Source of the DNA: Microtetraspora malaysiensis
GTDB taxonomy: Bacteria > Actinomycetota > Actinomycetes > Streptosporangiales > Streptosporangiaceae
NCBI RefSeq assembly: GCF_001528665.1
Contig: NZ_BBYJ01000004.1
Location: 310,472-374,471 of the forward strand
Direction: 5' to 3'
Length of the DNA: 64,000 bases
Part shown: in pieces, positions 1,957-56,516 of the stretch
Layout of the letters: each line of letters begins with the position of its first letter
Position numbering within the stretch: position 1 is the stretch's first letter
Notes under the pieces: model-generated
Told to the model about the DNA's origin: nothing
Seen by the model: the letters and a program-made list of their open reading frames with translations, nothing else
The model's database searches: none
Position numbers and translations under genes: made by a program

Positions 1957-2562
1957 TCAGCGGGCGTCACCCCTTCCATCATGGACGGCGCGCGACAGAC
2001 CGCGGGCACGCACACCTTGGCGCGCGCTTGCTCGCCCGGGCGTCAGCACACCCGGGCGAGCAGCTCGCGCACCCGGGGCTCGTACAGTACGGCTCCCGAC
2101 CTGGCGACCAGGTCGCGGGCCGCCGTAAGGTGCCGAACCGCGGCTTCCTGATCGCCGAACGCCAGCGCCAGCCGTCCGAGGCAGAGGTCGGCCACCGACC
2201 AGCCGCCGCCCCTCGGCGATCCGGTCCCTGGCCCGGCCCAGGTCGTAACCGTCCTCGGGCATGACGAGCGCGTACCCGCCGGGCGTGCTGACCAGTACGG
2301 ACGGGCTGTCTCTCCGGGTGCGCCCCGGCTCTAAGACGCGGCGCAGCTTGGAGATGTACGCCTGGACGGTGTTGACCGCCCGCGGCGGCGGCTCCTCCGC
2401 CCAGAGCGCGTCGACGATCCGGGCGGCGCTGACCGGCCGGGGCACGGCCAGCATGCAGAGCGCGAGCACGGCCCGCTGCTGCGCCGGCCCGGTGTCGAGC
2501 ACGGTCCCGTCGTCGCTGATCACGGACACGGGGCCGAGCAGGCGGAACTCCACGTCGGTCAC
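1957..2562 (-). pseudogene. SARP/AfsR-family regulator (OmpR-type winged-helix DBD), BTAD portion apparently frameshifted/truncated
   Basis: N-terminus MTDVEFRLLGPVSVISDDGTVLDTGPAQQRAVLALCML...RIVDALWAEEPPPRAVNTVQAYISKLRRVL is a typical SARP DNA-binding domain. The expected bacterial transcriptional activation domain continues in another frame: reverse complement of 2150-2200 reads GWSVADLCLGRLALA. Confidence 0.45.
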
Positions 2563-2709
2563 TCTCCTGGTCGCGCTGCGCCGACTTTATGCAGATATCG
2601 GACGCTTAAATAGGCCAGGTGGTTGAGGCCGATACGCATCACACGCGCCGGTGACGGCCGGTCGCGCGAGAGCACGACGGACCGCCGGAGGCGCGGCCAC
2701 GCTCAAGGC

Positions 2710-2802
2710 GAGGCGGGCCGGCCCGTCACTTCAGCTTGGCGAGGCGGGCCGCCCCGTCACTTCAGCTTGGCGAGGCGGGCCGCCCCGTCACTTCAGCTTG
2801 GC
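2710..2802. repeat. Three perfect/near-perfect tandem copies of a 31-bp unit (gaggcgggccgccccgtcacttcagcttggc) spanning the stop codon of the DUF305 gene
   Basis: Units at 2710-2740, 2741-2771, 2772-2802; only one mismatch (G/C in unit 1). Each unit encodes ...LAKLK-stop on the minus strand, i.e. the gene 3' end is triplicated. Confidence 0.9.
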
Positions 2803-3480
2803 GAGGTAGCCCTTCATCTCCTTGATCTCGGCCTTCTGCGTGCCGATGATCGTCTTGGCCATCGCCTTGGCGTCCGCGAAGGCACCGGAGGCGATCTCCT
2901 CCTCGGACATCTTGATCGCACCCTGGTGATGCTTGATCATCAGCGTGATGAAGAGGCGGTCGAACGGGGAGCCGTCGGCCTGGGCGAGCTTGGCGATATC
3001 GGCCTTGGCCAGCATGCCCGGCATCGCGTGGTCACGCGGGAGGGGCTCCTCGCCCCAGCCGTCCAGCCACCCCTTCATGGTCCGGATCTCCGGGTCCTGC
3101 GCCTCGGTGATCTTCGCGGCGAGGTCCCTGATCCACTGGTCGCCGGCCTGGGTCCGGGCGAGCCCGGCCATGTCGATGGCCTGCAGATGGTGCGGGATCA
3201 TCATCTTCGCGAAGGAGATGTCCGCGTCGTTGTGCCCCGCCGCGTCACCCGGGTCCCCAGCATCGGACGGAGACTCGGAGGGAGAGTCGGACGGCTCCCC
3301 GGCCGCGGACGGCGTGTCCGAGGCGACGGCCGACGGCGACGCGGCCGCGGTGTCGGACGCCGCCGCGGCCGACGGGGACGGAGCCGCGGCGTCCGTTCCG
3401 GAGCCGGAGCACCCGGCGAGCATGGTCAGCGCGACCGCGCCCGCGACGACCGGCAGGACGATCCGGCTAAAGCTGGTCAC
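2788..3480 (-). CDS. DUF305-family secreted lipoprotein
   Basis: Lipoprotein signal (RIVLPVVAGAVALTMLAGCSG lipobox) then DUF305 His-rich repeats (MMIPHHLQAIDMA ... LMIKHHQGAIKMS). Start placed at GTG 3478-3480; upstream in-frame ATG at 3597 also possible. Ser/Pro/Ala-rich linker. Confidence 0.65.
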   Translation of the reverse strand: MTSFSRIVLPVVAGAVALTMLAGCSGSGTDAAAPSPSAAAASDTAAASPSAVASDTPSAAGEPSDSPSESPSDAGDPGDAAGHNDADISFAKMMIPHHLQAIDMAGLARTQAGDQWIRDLAAKITEAQDPEIRTMKGWLDGWGEEPLPRDHAMPGMLAKADIAKLAQADGSPFDRLFITLMIKHHQGAIKMSEEEIASGAFADAKAMAKTIIGTQKAEIKEMKGYLAKLK

Positions 3481-3784
3481 TCGGAAGGAACCTTTCTCAG
3501 CGGGGCCAGAATGGTACAGACCGAAAGAGAGGCTTCCGCCGGTCCGTGATCTCGTTGTCAAGGACCCTACCGCGACGAGCACGCAGCCCTTCGTCACTCA
3601 GTTCGACCATTGATGGTCAAGGCGCCGGTCAACCCGCTTTCTTCATCGCCGTTCGCCGGAATACGTTCGCGTTCTCCACGGCGAAATCCCGCGTTGAGCT
3701 GCTATTGAACTGCCACCGAACTGCCGCGAAAACAACAGGACAGCAGGCCCCTGACCATATCGAACGGGGGCCGAATACTCCGAA

Positions 3785-3806
3785 AGGTTTCATACGGATG
3801 AAACCT
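3785..3806. promoter_or_regulatory. 9-bp perfect inverted repeat with 4-nt spacer (aggtttcat acgg atgaaacct)
   Basis: Read directly; lies in the relatively AT-rich intergenic region upstream of the LacI gene, just 5' of a TTGACA -35-like hexamer at 3810-3815. Confidence 0.4.
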
Positions 3807-3840
3807 CTGTTGACACGCACGAAACAGTGATACGTTCCGT

Positions 3841-3854
3841 TGGGAGCGCTCCCA
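3841..3854. promoter_or_regulatory. Perfect CebR-box operator TGGGAGCGCTCCCA
   Basis: Exact 14-bp palindrome identical to the published Streptomyces CebR (cellobiose/cello-oligosaccharide repressor) consensus; 30 bp upstream of the LacI-family gene start (ATG 3885 with GGAGA ribosome-binding site). Confidence 0.7.
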
Positions 3855-3884
3855 AGCCGTAACACTTCGGGCCGAGGAGACGGA

Positions 3885-4875
3885 ATGGCCGATCTTCCCA
3901 CCCTCGCGGAGGTAGCCGCCGCAGCCGGCGTCTCTCCGGCGACCGCGTCCCGGGTCCTCACCGGCTCGGTCCGCGTGACGACCTCCACCCGCCGTCAGGT
4001 GCACGACGCCATGTCCCGCCTCGGCTACGTACGGCGACGCGCGCCCCGCGGCTCCGGGGGCAGGCGCACCGACCAGATCATCGCCGCCGTCGTCTGCGAG
4101 CAGACTCCGCGACTCTTCAGCGAGCCCTTCTACGCCAGGCTGCTGTCCGCCTGCGAGGACACGCTGGCGGCGCACGGCGTCCCGATGGTCGTCATGACCG
4201 CCACGCCCGCGACCACGGCGATCGCCGCCCCGCCGCTGGTCGCGGGGGCGGTGGACGGGGTGCTCCTGGTGAGCGCCCGATCGCGCCACCCGCTCGCGGT
4301 CACCCTCGCCGCCTCGGGCATCCCCGTACGCTGCGCGGGCCGTCCCCCGGACGGCGTCGAGCTGCCGTACGTCGACATTGACAACCAGGACGGCGGGCGG
4401 CAGGCGGCCGAGCACCTCCTGCTGAGCAACCGGAGGGCCATCGCGATCATCGCCGGCCCCCCGACGCTCCCCGCCGCCAGGGACCGCCTGGACGGGTTCC
4501 GCCAGACGCTCCGCGACGCGGGCGTCGCCGACCCGCCGGTCGCGTACGGCGACTTCAGCCACGCCTCCGGCGCGCACGCCATGCAGTGGCTGCTGCAACG
4601 GGCGCCGCACCTGGACGCCGTCTTCGCCGCGTCGGACGTCATGGCGGCCGGGGCCATGCAGACGCTGCGCCGCGCCGGGCGCAAGGTGCCGGACGACGTC
4701 GCCGTGGTCGGCTTCGACGACGCGCCGATCGCCCGGCACACCTCCCCCACCCTGACCACCGTCCGCCAGCCCGTCGAGGAGCTCGCCTCACTCGCCGCCA
4801 AGCTGCTCCTCGCCTCGGTGGCCGAGGCCAGGGTGTCCGAGGGCGACCCGGTGCTGCCCACGGAACTGGTGGTTC

Positions 4876-4889: not shown

Positions 4890-6528
<1,639 letters not shown>

Positions 6529-50710: not shown

Positions 50711-50739
50711 GGTTACCCCCCAGCATGAAGGAGTGTGAC

Positions 50740-51483
50740 ATGCGCAAAGCAGTCATCTTCCTCTCGTCGGCGATCGTCGCCGCCGGGAGCACGCTCTTCC
50801 TCGCCTCCCCCGCCCTGGCCCACGGCTACGTGTCGTCGCCGCCCAGCAGGCAGGCCATGTGCGCCGAGGGTCGCGTCGCGAACTGCGGCGAGATCATCTA
50901 CGAGCCGCAGAGCGTGGAGGGCCCCAAGGGCCTACGGTCGTGCAGCGGCGGAAACGCCCGCTTCGCCCAGCTCGACGACGAGAGCAAGGCGTGGCCGACC
51001 ACCCGCGTGGGGAACAGCGTTCAGTTCAACTGGGTGCTGACCGCCCGCCACGCCACGAGCACGTGGGAGTACTACATCGGCGGCACCCGCGTCGCGGTGT
51101 TCGACGACGGGGGCCGCCAGCCGGGCGCCACGGTCACCCACAACGTGAACCTCGGTGGCCGGACCGGCAGGCAGAAGGTCCTCGCCATCTGGAACATCGC
51201 CGACACCCCGAACGCCTTCTACTCCTGCATCGACCTGCAGGTGGGCGACGGCCCCGACCCCAGCCCCAGCCCCAGCCCCACGGTGAGCCCGAGCCAGAGC
51301 CCCAGCCCGAGCCCGTCGACGAGCCCGACCACACCGGCGGGCACCTGGGCGGCCGGCACCGCGTACAAGGCGGGTGACCAGGTCACCTACGGCGGCGCGA
51401 GCTACCGCTGCCTCCAGGCGCACACCGCTCTCACCGGGTGGGAGCCGCCGAACACCCCGGCGCTCTGGCAGCGGCTGGGCTGA
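50740..51483 (+). CDS. Lytic polysaccharide monooxygenase (AA10) with C-terminal CBM5/12 chitin-binding domain
   Basis: Ribosome-binding site GAAGGAG before ATG 50740; signal peptide ends ALA / HGYVSSPPSRQ (N-terminal His of the copper histidine brace); PSPSPS linker; CBM5/12 (WAAGTAYKAGDQVTYGGASYRCLQAHTALTGWEPPNTPALWQRLG). Confidence 0.85.
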   Translation: MRKAVIFLSSAIVAAGSTLFLASPALAHGYVSSPPSRQAMCAEGRVANCGEIIYEPQSVEGPKGLRSCSGGNARFAQLDDESKAWPTTRVGNSVQFNWVLTARHATSTWEYYIGGTRVAVFDDGGRQPGATVTHNVNLGGRTGRQKVLAIWNIADTPNAFYSCIDLQVGDGPDPSPSPSPTVSPSQSPSPSPSTSPTTPAGTWAAGTAYKAGDQVTYGGASYRCLQAHTALTGWEPPNTPALWQRLG

Positions 51484-52426: not shown

Positions 52427-52580
52427 GTCTGAACCGCCGCCAGGCCCCTTATTCGACATCCAGCCCCGCTCCTCAACACTGGAACCAGGGCCACAAATGA
52501 TCATGCTGCGATCAGGATTTCGGCTGGCGAGCAACCATCGTGATCAACCCCGGGCGCTGGGCACCGCTGAGGCGATCACC

Positions 52581-52620
52581 AAATAGAAAAAGCCCAGGTC
52601 GACTATGCCAACCTGGGCTT
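52581..52620 (-). terminator. Rho-independent terminator downstream of tRNA-Lys
   Basis: Stem aagcccaggt / acctgggctt with T-run on the minus strand (A-run aaatagaaaaa on plus). Confidence 0.65.
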
Positions 52621-52628
52621 TCGTTCTG

Positions 52629-52702
52629 TGCGCCGCCAGGGACTCGAACCCCGGACCCGCTGATTAAGAGTCAGCTGCTCTAACCAACTGAGCTAGCGGC
52701 GC
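52629..52702 (-). tRNA. tRNA-Lys (anticodon CTT)
   Basis: Reverse complement folds as a cloverleaf: acceptor gcgccgc/gcggcgc, anticodon stem gctga/tcagc with loop cuCUUaa, T-loop GGTTCGAGTCC; 74 nt, CCA not encoded. Confidence 0.85.
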
Positions 52703-52820
52703 CTGCGAACGCTCGTAACCTTAGCAGTCTCCACGGCGTCACGCACATTCGTTGCCGCCTCCCCGGACCACGGCCCGGGGAGCGCCAAGCTTCAGGGGAT
52801 CACCGGCGAACGGGGCTGGA

Positions 52821-53414
52821 TCAGCCCCTCCACGCGCCGGAGGAGAAGGGCTGGGGAGTGCCCTTGGTGCCGGGGCCCTTGCCCCACTTGGTGACGACGT
52901 AGTCGATCGCGATGTGGCCCTCGCCGCCGTTGTTCTCGACGGTCAGCGTGTTGGTGTTCCACGAGCCACCGGTCAGCTCGGCGAAGGTCTTGCCATCGAT
53001 GTCGAGCATGACGCCGCTCTCGGACGGGACGCCGGGGCCGCGGTCGCCGATGAAGAACTTGGCCTTCTTGCCCTTGTAGATGATGTAGCCCTCGGTGCCG
53101 AGCGGCCAGCTCGGGCTGGAGAACAGGCCCTTCTGCATCGGCTTGCCGATAGCGGGAAGGCCGGTGTCACCCTGGCGGCCGGAGGCGTCGTCCCAGAAGT
53201 ACGAACCCCTGGTGCTGCCATGGAAGATCGCCTGCTCCATCTCCGGAGCCTGTGCGACCTGGGAGGTGTGGGCGGCCTTCACCGGGGCGACCGCCGCGGG
53301 GGCAGCGCTGGCCGCGGTGACACCGAACGCGCTGACACCGACGAAGGCGGCGCCGGCGACGGCGGTCAGAGCGGTCAGCTTCCGGTTCTTGCGCAGGCCA
53401 AACAGCGTGTTCAT
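52821..53414 (-). CDS. Secreted RlpA-like double-psi beta-barrel (DPBB) domain protein
   Basis: Start ATG 53412-14 (MNTLFGLRKNRKLTALTAVAGAAFVGVSAFGVTAASA signal peptide); C-terminal GYIIYKGKKAKFFIGDRGPG...MLDIDGKTFAELTG typical of DPBB/expansin-like cell-wall-binding domains. Confidence 0.55.
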   Translation of the reverse strand: MNTLFGLRKNRKLTALTAVAGAAFVGVSAFGVTAASAAPAAVAPVKAAHTSQVAQAPEMEQAIFHGSTRGSYFWDDASGRQGDTGLPAIGKPMQKGLFSSPSWPLGTEGYIIYKGKKAKFFIGDRGPGVPSESGVMLDIDGKTFAELTGGSWNTNTLTVENNGGEGHIAIDYVVTKWGKGPGTKGTPQPFSSGAWRG

Positions 53415-54717
53415 GAAAAATCGAGATCTTTCGTGAGACGACAGGGGACGGCCGCGTGCGTCGTGTATCAGGCCTGCTAGGTCAAGGGCGGGCCAGGCAC
53501 GGGGCGCGGAGCGGGTCGAGAGATGTCGATCGCCACTGAGATGCACATTTCGTGCGCTGTACGCGTCCATCAGTTGAGGGCCGATGATCGCGTCGGGCGG
53601 ACGGGCCGTGAGGACCCGGATTCGGAGGTCAGGCGGGGATCTCCCGCAAGGTCTCCTCTTCTGAAAGTCCAGCCACCGGTCGGCAGCAATATGGACACTA
53701 CACACCAAGACATGACAAAGCAAACGAAAGCACGCAAATACGGCAAAAGATCTACCACGTTAGCTAAAAACGATCTAATGCCGGCCACGTCAATGTGTCG
53801 GAAACCGCGCGTATACCGGGATTCCCGCGCGGGCGAATGGCAAAGGGAGCTTCCATAGGGTAAAGCGCCGATCAGCGTGTTCCCGCGCCGCCAGGCAAAA
53901 CGACGGCATTGCGCGCCCCAGTCCTGCGTCCGGAGCACGGGCGCGGGCCATCACGAGAGCGGAGAGCGCCGGAACGTGGCCCTCCGAGGAGCGATCAAGA
54001 CGCTGACGAGGGACGTCACCGACGGCGACCGACCGGCGAGAGGCGGCCGGCAAGGGCTTCGCCGTACGAGACCGCGACGCGAAAGCCGCCCCCCGCATGG
54101 CGGCGGTCCGGCCGGGGAAACGCGAAAAGGCCGCGCACTGGCGGCCCTCGCGACATCAGAACGAGCAAACAGGAAAAGGCCCGACGGAGCGGGCGGGAAC
54201 ATAACAGGAATGGGGCGGGAGATACCCAGGTGAAAGCTGAGGAAGAACGTTTCCAGGACCAGCCGGGTGCGGTAACGACCCCGGAGCCGCATCTGCCGTC
54301 GCACTCATCGAGGACGCGAATCGGGTGAAAGCCACAGGGCCGGGATCCCGCGCGCTGTCAGCCCGGGCGGTCCCGGCCGAGCGCCGCTTGGGGCGGGGTG
54401 CGGGAGGAGAACCGACGGCGGACATGCGTCGGGGCCGGGCAGTCCCCCAACTACCCGGCCCCGACTGAAGCGGTCCGCCCGGGATACCCTCCCCAAAGGC
54501 ACCGGCGGTTCCCGCTGTCCGGACGCGGTTCCCCCTCCGCGTCCTTATCGGCAAAAGTCTTATCGGTGGAGCCATGGCCCCCTTGACCTGCTTCCACAGT
54601 ACCGACGGCCACACCACGGGCGGGTCATGTCACGGTGGGGTTTCCACCTCGGTCGGCGGCCTTCGACAAGGCCACGCAAGATCAACCGCCTCCCCTCGGA
54701 AACGGCGCTCAGGGCGC

Positions 54718-55824
54718 TTATACGCCCTCACGGAGGGGGACGTCGGGCTCGCGCACGGGGAGGTCGGCCCTGTGGAGGGGGAGGTCGAGCCGGACCAGCG
54801 TGCCCCCGCCGGGGGCGGCGCTCGCCGAGACGCTGCCTCTGTGGCTGTCCACGACCTGGCGCACGATGGCGAGCCCCAGCCCCGACCCGGGCCTGGACCG
54901 CGCGCCCGGCGCCCGGTAGAACCGGTCGAAGACATGCGGCAGATCCTCGGGGGCGATCCCCGCCCCATGGTCGCGTACGGTCACCACGCCGCCGACCTGG
55001 CGCACCTCGACGGCGCTTCCCGGCGGGCTGTACTTGCCCGCATTGTCGAGCAGGTTGGCCACCGCCCGGGACAGGCGATCGGACACACCCCGCACCACCG
55101 CCGGCTGCACCGAGACCCGGTACGACGCGGACGGCCAGTGCGCGGAGGCCCGTGCCACCTCTCGGGCGATCACCTCGTCGATACGCACGTCCTCGACCAG
55201 CGCGGCCGGCTCCTCGTCCCTGGCCAGCTCGACCACGTCGGAGATCAGCACGGTCAGCTCCTCGAGACCGGCGGTCACCGATTTGCTGATCTCGTCTCGG
55301 TCCTCCGGCGTGAGCCCGCCCCTGATCAGCAGTTCGACGTTCGTCCGGAGCGCGGTCAATGGGGTGCGCAGCTCGTGTGACGCGTCCGCGACCAGGCGTT
55401 TCTGCGCCCGGGCGGAACGCTCCAGGGCGTCGAGCATCGTGTTGAAGCTGCGGGCCAGGCTGCCCAGCTCGTCGTCCTTGCCGACCTTGATGCGGGTCGT
55501 GAGGTCGCGCGTGGTGGCGACCCGCTCGGCGGCGTCCTTCAGGGTGCCGACCGGCCGCAACCCTGTGTACGCGGCGATCCAGCCCAGGCCGCCCGACAGC
55601 ACGAGCCCGCCGAGAGCGGCGGCGAGGAACGGCCAGCCGAGATCGTCGACGTCCCCCAAAGCGGCCAGCGCCCCGGTCGGCGGCCGGTCCGGCCACGCGT
55701 CGTAGCTCCCGAGCGCGCTCTCGACCCTCCGGCAGGTGATCAGGTACGCGGCGACGATGGCGACGATCACACTGATCGCCGCGGCCAGCGCCGAGGCGAG
55801 GGCGAGCCGCCAGCGGATCTTCAC
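54718..55824 (-). CDS. Sensor histidine kinase (two TM, HAMP, HisKA, HATPase_c)
   Basis: H-box [15 protein letters not shown]-box [10 protein letters not shown]-boxes DHGAGI / GSGLGLAIV; GTG start overlaps the response-regulator stop (GTGA). Confidence 0.85.
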
Positions 55825-56516
55825 AACTGCTCCCTGAGCGTGTACCCGAGGCCGTGCACGGTGTGGATCAGCCTCGGCTCCCCGCACGCCTCGGTTTTCC
55901 GCCGCAGATAGCGGATGTAGACCTCCAGGGAGTTGGAACCCGGAGTGAACTCGTATCCCCAGATGCGTTCAAGGATGATCTCGCGGGTGAGCACCTGGCC
56001 TCCGTTGGACATGAGCAGGTCGAGCAGCGCGAACTCGGTCCTCGTCAGGTCGATGACGCGCGCGCCCCGCCGGACCTGCCTGTTCTCGGGCAGCAGCACC
56101 AGGTCCGCGTACCGCGTGACCGGCCCGGCCGGCGCCGTACGGCGGAGCAGGGCGCGCACCCGCGCGAACAACTCCTCCAGCGCGAACGGCTTGATCAGGT
56201 AGTCGTCGGCCCCCGCGTCCAGGCCGACGACCCGGTCACCGACGCCGCCGAGGGCGGTCAGCATGAGCACGGGGGTGCGGTCGCCGCTCCCGCGGAGCCT
56301 CCGGCAGACCTCCAGGCCGTCCATGTTCGGCATCATCACGTCGAGGACGACCAGGTCAGGTTGGGTTCCGATGATCGAGGCGAGGGCGGTCACACCGTCG
56401 GCCGCGCCGGCGACCTGGTATCCCTCCAGCCGCAGCGCGCGGGCGACCGCGTTGCGCACCCCTGGTTCGTCGTCCACGACGAGGACACGTGTGTCGGCCA
56501 CGGCGCCATCATGCAC
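55821..56516 (-). CDS. OmpR-family response regulator
   Basis: Receiver ([14 protein letters not shown]...[13 protein letters not shown]...DDYLIKPF) plus winged-helix trans_reg_C ([27 protein letters not shown]). Confidence 0.9.

Follow-up and report, generated by a model that had tools for sequence, protein, structure and literature searches.

The 1.3-kb gap at positions 53415–54717 of the Microtetraspora malaysiensis window (the whole 64,000-nucleotide stretch analysed here) is non-coding and is composed of three elements on the minus strand: the gene of a structured small RNA, which we refer to as the G-loop RNA, a spacer, and the promoter and leader of a gene for a 197-aa secreted protein. 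The explanation we favour, with a probability of about 0.7, is that these elements represent two minus-strand transcription units split by an insulating spacer, one for a free-standing small RNA and the other for the protein gene, the leader of which would be a former c-di-AMP riboswitch leader. Comparative sequence evidence gives good support to the proposal that the G-loop RNA is a previously undescribed family of structured small RNAs, with its expression predicted.

The gap is bounded by the stop codon of a histidine kinase gene (54718, minus strand) and the ATG of the 197-aa protein gene (53414, minus strand). The third-position GC contrast is 0.3–0.55 in both flanking genes and falls to 0.04–0.20 over 53400–54700. 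None of seven mechanical open reading frames (ORFs) of the gap matched Pfam, and tblastx of the gap against 80 orthologous loci returned no colinear, frame-consistent matches. These loci carry relatives of the 197-aa protein and all come from Streptosporangiales (Streptosporangiaceae and two Thermobifida loci). A hidden protein gene or pseudogene was ruled out by these three negative results, and the statement of the first-pass annotation, made from the sequence alone, that the 1.3 kb contain no convincing ORF was borne out. When the gap was compared with the same loci by blastn, three islands conserved across genera were identified amid divergent sequence. All three belong to the minus-strand elements: island A (~54420–54660) corresponds to the small-RNA gene, island B (~53668–53756) to the predicted promoter of the protein gene, and island C to the last 60–140 nt 5′ of the start codon.

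The G-loop RNA (54425–54591, minus strand; ~165 nt) extends from a predicted start at GCAGGUC (~54590 ± 2) to the end of its last hairpin and a short tail, and is organised into hairpins P1 to P4. P1 (54568–54582; GGGGGCCAUGGCUCC here) is variable in sequence and contains a G5 run in this species; one or two hairpins are found at this position in every genus, with a different sequence each time. P2 (54521–54544), defined by pairing and covariation, is an 8-bp hairpin (GGACGCGG/CCGCGUCC) with the loop AGGGGGAA; 99.3% of its alignment cells are paired, a C-G to U-A double change is present in five sequences, and its G-U pairs are valid on the minus strand only. P3 (54469–54517), delineated by the predicted fold and by covariation, is a long irregular hairpin with an outer stem (GCGG/CCGC), an inner stem, and an apical stem (UGCCUUU/GAGGGUA) that closes an apical GGG loop within UUUGGGGAGGG. 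Its predicted topology is identical in 34 of 34 distinct sequences, and double changes occur at three apical pairs. P4 (54428–54465), which was recognised as inverted repeat I7, is a GC-rich terminal hairpin of 14–16 bp with the invariant loop UUGGGGGA and is the presumed terminator; 99.8% of its cells are paired and four of its pairs show double changes, in 2–18 sequences each. The fold z-score of the small RNA in the window was −4.06. We also observed that the P4 tail CAUGUCC (54421–54427, minus strand) is complementary to GGACA just 3′ of P2 (54516–54520) and that Microbispora has GGAAA/UUUCC at these places, which suggests a candidate closing helix around P3 and P4.

The core of the RNA (~125 nt) is 72–93% identical in 42 loci with diverged flanks, and was found in Microtetraspora, Microbispora, Planotetraspora, Sphaerimonospora, Sphaerisporangium, Thermopolyspora and metagenome-assembled genomes (MAGs). 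A covariance model built for this core (R1) matched the window at 54427–54548 with 127.8 bits; the opposite strand there scored 26 bits. Across 43 sources (the window and 42 loci) R1 identified one strong match per locus, scoring 78–136 bits, with opposite-strand scores of 20–36 bits, and nothing strong beyond these in 0.87 Mb of loci. A dispersed repeat or generic terminator was ruled out by this single-copy occurrence. A weak R1 match in Thermobifida fusca (L077, 4510–4629) overlaps the end of a coding gene and was dismissed as a chance match. A metagenome scan with the P4 pattern, checked with R1, added 15 matches, of which 14 are complete or almost complete and one is truncated at a contig end; the copies found in total number 57.

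The covariation analysis against orthologous upstream regions that the first-pass annotation had called for gave a clear result for the small RNA. In the R1-based alignment 96.5% of cells are paired and nine pairs show double-sided changes; only 0–1 of 500 shuffles matched the observed values, and slid controls paired at 36–47%. A small RNA had been named in that annotation as an alternative to a leader; this part of the suggestion is supported, with the RNA (54591–54425) lying ~1 kb upstream of the segment proposed for the search (53415–53800). The most highly conserved residues of the RNA sit in the loops, namely A(U)GGGGGAA in P2, UUUGGGG(A/G) in P3 and UUGGGGGA in P4. The three conserved loops thereby bear GGGG(G)A with invariant G residues, and P1 contributes a fourth G5 run in this species. 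G5 runs are three- to fourfold rarer in the window than its composition predicts, and three of them fall within the 165-nt RNA. The G-loop RNA matched no family in Rfam 15, and we found no report of it or of its transcript in the literature searched.

The strand of the RNA was assigned from several features of the alignment. P2 and P4 together contain 16 G-U cells, which would read as A-C mismatches on the plus strand, versus at most three unpaired cells, and apical P3 contains invariant U-G pairs. U-runs follow P4 in Microbispora and Planotetraspora, and conservation reaches upstream on the minus-strand side only. The G-U cells, the U-runs and the upstream conservation thus place the small RNA on the minus strand. 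Its predicted −10 hexamer TACTGT (54596–54601, minus strand) has an invariant T, A and final T. The corresponding TANNNT is located exactly 4 nt before an invariant GCA(G)GTC in 50 of 51 copies, and on the basis of this fixed position the start was placed at ~54590. With the predicted ends, the RNA would measure 154–179 nt (median 164; 50 copies).

Two further boxes on the minus strand, GAGGTGGAAACCCCACC (54650–54634) and ATGAC (54628–54624), lie at about −60 to −35 and correspond to invariant columns in the 37-sequence alignment A3. We infer that this segment (54624–54650) contains candidate regulator-binding sites, and in some genera the adjacent OmpR-type two-component system would be the obvious suspect. 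The boxes consist of a CCGAAAAUCCACC-like element and ATGAC, and the Microbispora ATGAC lies in a ATGAcgagtTCAT palindrome. A sigma-WhiG-type promoter (GCCGATAA) was rejected, as it is restricted to Microtetraspora and has no TAAA at the −35 position.

The second unit begins in the AT-rich island that the first-pass annotation had noted. This island is real, with a GC of 0.49–0.54 at ~53660–53800 compared with 0.71 window-wide (71% G+C for the whole window). Judging from the alignments, its core is the predicted promoter of the protein gene and not RNA structure. This promoter (53695–53723, minus strand) comprises a −35 TTGCTT (53723–53718), a 17-nt spacer and a −10 TAGTGT (53700–53695). The TT.G of the −35 and the T, A and T of the −10 are invariant, and the promoter is homologous in lineages with and without a riboswitch. 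Some 60 nt upstream of the predicted gene start is the GTAGATCT box (53748–53755, minus strand), which is invariant in alignments A4 and A10. It was identified in 65 of the 80 loci (at ~4400–4760 in L001–L079), 53–54 nt upstream of a −10-like GTAGnGT in 54 of these; the 65 include loci lacking the small RNA and lacking the riboswitch. This box is probably the operator of a regulator of this gene family.

The predicted transcript carries a conserved 5′ leader of ~275 nt (53415–53688, minus strand) with conserved blocks and hairpins, the length of which is 269–295 nt in 29 loci from four genera. Rfam scans of the leader returned no family at the gathering score. The GC-rich pseudo-symmetric stretch quoted in the first-pass annotation was located at 53645–53603 (minus strand), where it corresponds to two conserved leader hairpins. 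The hairpin GCGGG-AGAUC-CCCGC (53633–53647, minus strand) belongs to this stretch; its stem is GCGGG/CCCGC in Microtetraspora, GUGGG/CCCAC in Microbispora, GUGAGG/CCUCAC in Planotetraspora and GAGUGG/CCACUC in Sphaerisporangium. These compensatory changes were read straight from the alignment, a formal column-wise covariation count being impossible for the leader since differing loop lengths put the columns out of register. Immediately 5′ of the start codon, which is not preceded by a canonical Shine-Dalgarno sequence, is the near-invariant block GUCGUCUCACGAAAGAUC (53425–53442, minus strand). RNAalifold pairs this block with the purine tract of the leader, a pairing that has no covariation support because both sides are invariant. 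An upstream ORF after the purine tract was rejected, its start codon lying in a covarying hairpin and being lost in L002, with lengths ranging from 6 to 17 codons. The leader also gave a weak Rfam match to RAGATH-32 (53595–53676, minus strand; 13.8 bits, the gathering score being 41.8). This match has the exact 10-mer GUGGCUGGAC in common with the invariant pre-aptamer segment described below and is otherwise at chance level; no literature was found, and it is probably due to chance.

In Streptomyces, the ydaO/c-di-AMP riboswitch shuts off cell-wall hydrolase genes via premature termination (PMC10117811), and such an element had been suggested for the leader studied here. It was not found. Rfam cmscan at E ≤ 10 returned no RF00379 on the 3-kb stretch 52500–55500 or the 301-nt stretch 53400–53700, and there is none at the gathering score (38 bits) in the whole window; the Microbispora leader likewise gave no c-di-AMP aptamer in an Rfam scan. 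We also built a clade-specific model from 11 orthologous riboswitches (R2) and ran it over the window and 89 loci. R2 found no match in the window with default filters. With the filters off, it scored 6.0 bits at 53685–53651, where its first 10 and last 11 positions were aligned and 124 of 145 were deleted. A ydaO riboswitch in the window was ruled out by the Rfam searches at three scales together with this unfiltered R2 run. The suggestion of a "long structured leader or riboswitch" thus held for the conserved, structured ~275-nt leader and not for the riboswitch.

The association of this riboswitch with such genes is nevertheless real, since orthologous leaders of the same gene carry RF00379 at the homologous place. 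The homologous leaders of Sphaerisporangium and Streptosporangium score 74–96 bits with Rfam RF00379, and R2 identified the aptamer between the same promoter and gene in 43 orthologous or homologous loci, at 70–160 bits. Positive loci include all those of Sphaerisporangium and Streptosporangium, as well as Thermopolyspora, Bailinhaonella, one Nonomuraea, MAGs and six metagenome contigs. R2 found no aptamer in any Microtetraspora, Microbispora, Planotetraspora or Sphaerimonospora locus, nor in most Nonomuraea or in Thermobifida. The 11 orthologous aptamers contain the invariant segments CCGGGGA..CCA, GGGGUGAAUCC, CCCGAA and GUCAGCUAACC, and the window leader contains none of CCGGGGA, GGGGUGAAUCC, CCCGAA and GUCAGCUAACC.

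Leaders with and without the aptamer are homologous in the promoter and in the pre-aptamer segment (...GGUGGCUGGACUUUCAG). Riboswitch-bearing leaders then contain ~150 nt extra, ending in an invariant UGGAGAGGAGA(C/U), and the aptamer tail TGGAGAGGAGA(C/T) is invariant in 11 of 11 orthologous riboswitches. In the window leader, ...UUCAG joins directly to AAGAGGAGAC. Based on the end-only alignment of R2, in which 124 positions are deleted, the purine tract appears to be a relic of the riboswitch tail. From R2 and alignment A10, the putative relic (53651–53685, minus strand) comprises the 5′ flank UGCCGACCGG... and the 3′ tail GAAGAGGAGAC, with the core missing between ~53661 and 53660. The window element resembles RF00379 in its position in the 5′ untranslated region of a secreted, cell-envelope-type protein gene, as for Streptomyces rpfA, and in what it has kept, namely promoter, pre-aptamer segment and invariant GGAGAGGAGA tail. 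It differs in that the aptamer core is absent, so it would be a relic and not a member of the family. The window leader would accordingly descend from a c-di-AMP riboswitch leader, by loss rather than gain of the aptamer, and with the core absent c-di-AMP shut-off of the protein gene is presumably gone in this organism. The same gene, promoter and leader with and without an aptamer in sister genera constitute a natural experiment in riboswitch evolution, and their comparison could show the effect of removing second-messenger control from a secreted cell-envelope protein.

The spacer (53757–54424, minus strand) separates the two units. Its sequence is unalignable between genera and conserved only among close Microtetraspora relatives, and its length ranges from 103 to 836 nt. 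Its composition is strand-specific: pyrimidines account for 59% of the gene strand here and for a mean of 58.5% (enriched in 41 of 41 loci), compared with a background of 50.0 ± 3.3%, and T exceeds A in the spacer of each of the 41 loci measured. The spacers contain 62 runs of T4 or longer versus 11 of A4 or longer, and C4 runs at twice the background density. Within the window spacer, the terminator scan and reading of the sequence identified a terminator-like hairpin, GCCCGCUCCGUCGGGC (54179–54194, minus strand), followed by CUUUUCCUGUUU, and a second one (~54146–54129, minus strand) followed by UUUUCGCGUUU. These features are consistent with the spacer acting as a zone that stops read-through.

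Taken as a mechanism, the two-unit explanation would operate as follows. The TANNNT promoter would fire at ~54590 to give an RNA of ~165 nt with hairpins P1–P4, the strong GC hairpin P4 ending the transcript. The three GGGG(G)A apical loops, rather than the stems, would form the invariant working surface and could bind either C-rich single strands of an RNA partner or a protein, which would make the RNA a trans-acting regulator or decoy. The spacer, rich in pyrimidines and U-tracts, would stop read-through, and the gene of the secreted protein, for which a double-psi beta-barrel (DPBB) fold is predicted, would be expressed from its own promoter in the AT-rich island. The aptamer core (~125–150 nt) would have been cleanly excised from its leader in the Microtetraspora/Microbispora/Planotetraspora/Sphaerimonospora lineage.

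Several observations weigh against this explanation, and some of them favour a different one, in which the DPBB-fold gene has a second, long transcript that begins with the G-loop RNA, acting in cis as a sensor of the orphan riboswitch or attenuator type, with a ligand or protein at the loops setting termination at P4 versus read-through. Almost every copy of the small RNA precedes the protein gene in the same orientation, even at loci where its upstream neighbour is something other than the kinase, and this also applies to unbiased metagenome contigs: all nine with enough downstream DNA encode the protein on the strand of the small RNA, and a tenth (L088) has island B, the promoter region of the gene, at its end. 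Such near-absolute linkage and co-orientation would be unneeded by a purely trans-acting RNA and hints at a cis relationship. Only 13 copies out of 53 have at least four consecutive U residues after P4, and in most species this hairpin therefore does not qualify as a canonical intrinsic terminator; an invariant loop such as that of P4 would be uncommon in a plain terminator; and the composition of the spacer is strand-specific as though it were transcribed. Strict sigma-70 criteria yielded no promoter in a scan. The transcription, start and end of the small RNA are predictions from conserved sequence. The loops scored z-values of ~0 to +1.4 against the neighbouring leader in nearly all loop-locus pairs, with one down to −1.97, and the aptamer may have been gained in its present hosts rather than lost, as favoured here, from the window lineage. 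The sensor explanation is nonetheless doubtful. In L079 (2662–4523) ~2 kb separate the RNA from the gene and contain two opposite-strand ORFs, one apparently for an MFS-type transporter, and the spacer of L031 (~2500–4400) is enlarged by a similar insertion of ~1.9 kb. The conserved −35 and −10 of the gene itself persist without the RNA: L005 has the gene and leader, and Streptosporangium the promoter and riboswitch leader, with no R1 match to the small RNA, and the same promoter is kept in some Nonomuraea. The spacer contains many U-tracts and terminator-like hairpins, and no alternative anti-terminator pairing is evident. The L079 and L031 insertions, L005 and Streptosporangium thus lead us to prefer a free-standing small RNA over a riboswitch-like cis element. 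The smaller inserted ORF of L079 is MarR-like by look. An origin of the RNA as the 3′ untranslated region of the histidine kinase operon was ruled out, because loci that lack the kinase still have the RNA together with the downstream gene.

The remaining alternatives concern the nature of the individual conserved blocks. It is very unlikely that the window leader is a working, highly diverged c-di-AMP (or related) aptamer beyond the reach of covariance models. The leader is long, conserved, structured, homologous at both ends to riboswitch-bearing leaders and keeps the invariant purine tail; against this, only ~14 nt lie between the retained flanks, where relatives align to ~124 model positions, and all the invariant aptamer segments are absent. 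We regard as extremely unlikely a real RNA on the plus strand, with three C-rich-loop hairpins, that resembles the actinobacterial small RNA 6C. Both strands can fold, the hairpins being close to palindromic, and in the Microbispora locus L008 the antisense of P3–P4 (1136–1204, minus strand) gave a full-length, sub-threshold match to the 6C family RF01066 (23.2 bits, E = 1.4). This score is half of the gathering score of 47 bits, the match was unlisted in a narrower scan, and RF01066 has no match in the window. On the plus strand the G-U cells of P2 and P4 would moreover become A-C mismatches and apical P3 would lose its invariant U-G pairs, and the sequence at the would-be plus promoter is unconserved, in contrast to the invariant −10 at a fixed distance on the minus side. 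The chance that the conserved block 54420–54600 encodes a small protein is close to negligible. Mechanical ORFs do overlap it, such as 54451–54612 (minus strand, 53 aa) and 54398–54586 (plus strand, 62 aa), but the former begins upstream of the predicted transcription start, and substitutions are paired across stems without three-base periodicity or a third-position GC signal. Loop and linker lengths shift by 1–2 nt between genera, which breaks any frame and shows the island A block not to be coding.

Within the favoured two-unit explanation, known small-RNA systems offer clues to the possible function of the G-loop RNA. The actinobacterial 6C small RNA (RF01066; B11 in mycobacteria) uses C-rich loops to pair with G-rich single-stranded loops, independently of a chaperone (PMC6486639). 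Both RNAs are actinobacterial, with GC-rich hairpins and homopolymer-rich apical loops as the functional part, and the G-loop RNA is the mirror image of 6C, bearing G runs where 6C bears C runs; on its supported strand its loops are rich in G and not in C. The Rfam model of 6C spans 75 positions, whereas the G-loop RNA has four hairpins in ~165 nt, and 6C is described as pan-actinobacterial, in contrast to the narrow distribution of the G-loop RNA (part of Streptosporangiaceae) and its tie to one neighbour gene. By analogy, the G-loop RNA might be a 6C antagonist (sponge or decoy), its loops catching the C-rich loops of 6C by G:C kissing. We consider this decidedly unlikely, the hints being the mirror-image architecture and the 23-bit antisense resemblance and nothing more direct. 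If it were true, 6C targets such as replication and secretion genes would be freed, and expression would be coordinated with the neighbouring c-di-AMP-controlled cell-envelope gene. Targeting of the neighbouring leader by the G-loops was ruled out: duplex energies of the three loops with this leader were no better than those of dinucleotide shuffles, and the predicted sites are unconserved.

CsrB and RsmZ are multi-loop decoy RNAs in which a short purine motif is repeated in hairpin loops. The repetition of GGGGA over several loops of the G-loop RNA is similar in architecture and would fit titration of a partner; the differences are that the G-loop RNA has only three or four motifs and that no CsrA-type protein is known here. 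Ms1/6S-like RNA candidates have been described in Streptosporangiaceae, including M. fusca, M. niveoalba and Microbispora spp. (PMC9130861). Like the G-loop RNA, they feature a conserved block of ~140–150 nt in an unusually long Streptosporangiaceae intergenic region (PMC9130861). Ms1 is, however, a rod of ~300 nt flanked by a HAD-IB hydrolase gene, whereas the G-loop RNA is a series of hairpins, and the HAD gene here is of family IA and non-adjacent. An Ms1/6S-like identity was ruled out, since none of the published candidates shares a contig with the G-loop RNA and the HAD gene belongs to subfamily IA instead of HAD-IB. The hosts of the G-loop RNA are antibiotic-producing actinomycetes with an almost unexplored RNA biology. 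Exposed G-runs are rare in these G-run-avoiding genomes and are the kind of site that 6C binds, which makes the G-loop RNA a testable candidate for a circuit of small RNA–small RNA or small RNA–protein titration in Actinobacteria.

The 197-aa secreted protein downstream (52821–53414, minus strand; third-position GC signal) has ~600 homologues, all annotated as hypothetical, among them a 97% identical one from Microtetraspora malaysiensis, and no sequence match in Pfam, NCBIfam or the PDB. Its AlphaFold2 model has a pLDDT of 70.6. A Foldseek search with this model identified expansins, Pa4485, the Streptomyces papain inhibitor (SPI), kiwellin and cerato-platanins, with weak E-values (2e-3 to 0.3) and TM-scores of 0.3–0.4. 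Expansins, Pa4485, SPI and cerato-platanins, all of them DPBB proteins, gave E-values of 2e-3 to 7e-2. The label of a DPBB protein that the first-pass annotation had attached to it thus finds weak structural matches and no sequence-level support, and we predict this fold with modest confidence. Downstream of the gene is tRNA-Lys(CUU) (52628–52702, minus strand; ARAGORN and Rfam), which occupies the same place in Microtetraspora and Sphaerisporangium (L029, L033, L039, L041 and L066 at ~5580–5912), and this conserved neighbour indicates that the loci are orthologous.

At the upstream boundary of the gap, the histidine kinase gene (54718–55887, minus strand) encodes HAMP, HisKA and HATPase_c domains, as identified with Pfam and NCBIfam, and is accompanied by an OmpR-type response regulator gene (55821–56516). 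In other genera this kinase is not always beside the small RNA. The 3′ end of the kinase gene (54727–54790, plus-strand coordinates) contains short direct repeats with units of 17–21 nt that are 76–88% identical; they fall in the last 70 nt of the coding region and give a repetitive C-terminal peptide. On the other side of the protein gene, the ORF at 50725–51483 (plus strand) is similar to the N-acetylglucosamine-binding protein GbpA (chitin-binding/LPMO type; E = 3.8e-36), so that another secreted protein active on polysaccharides is encoded 1.3 kb away from the DPBB-fold gene.

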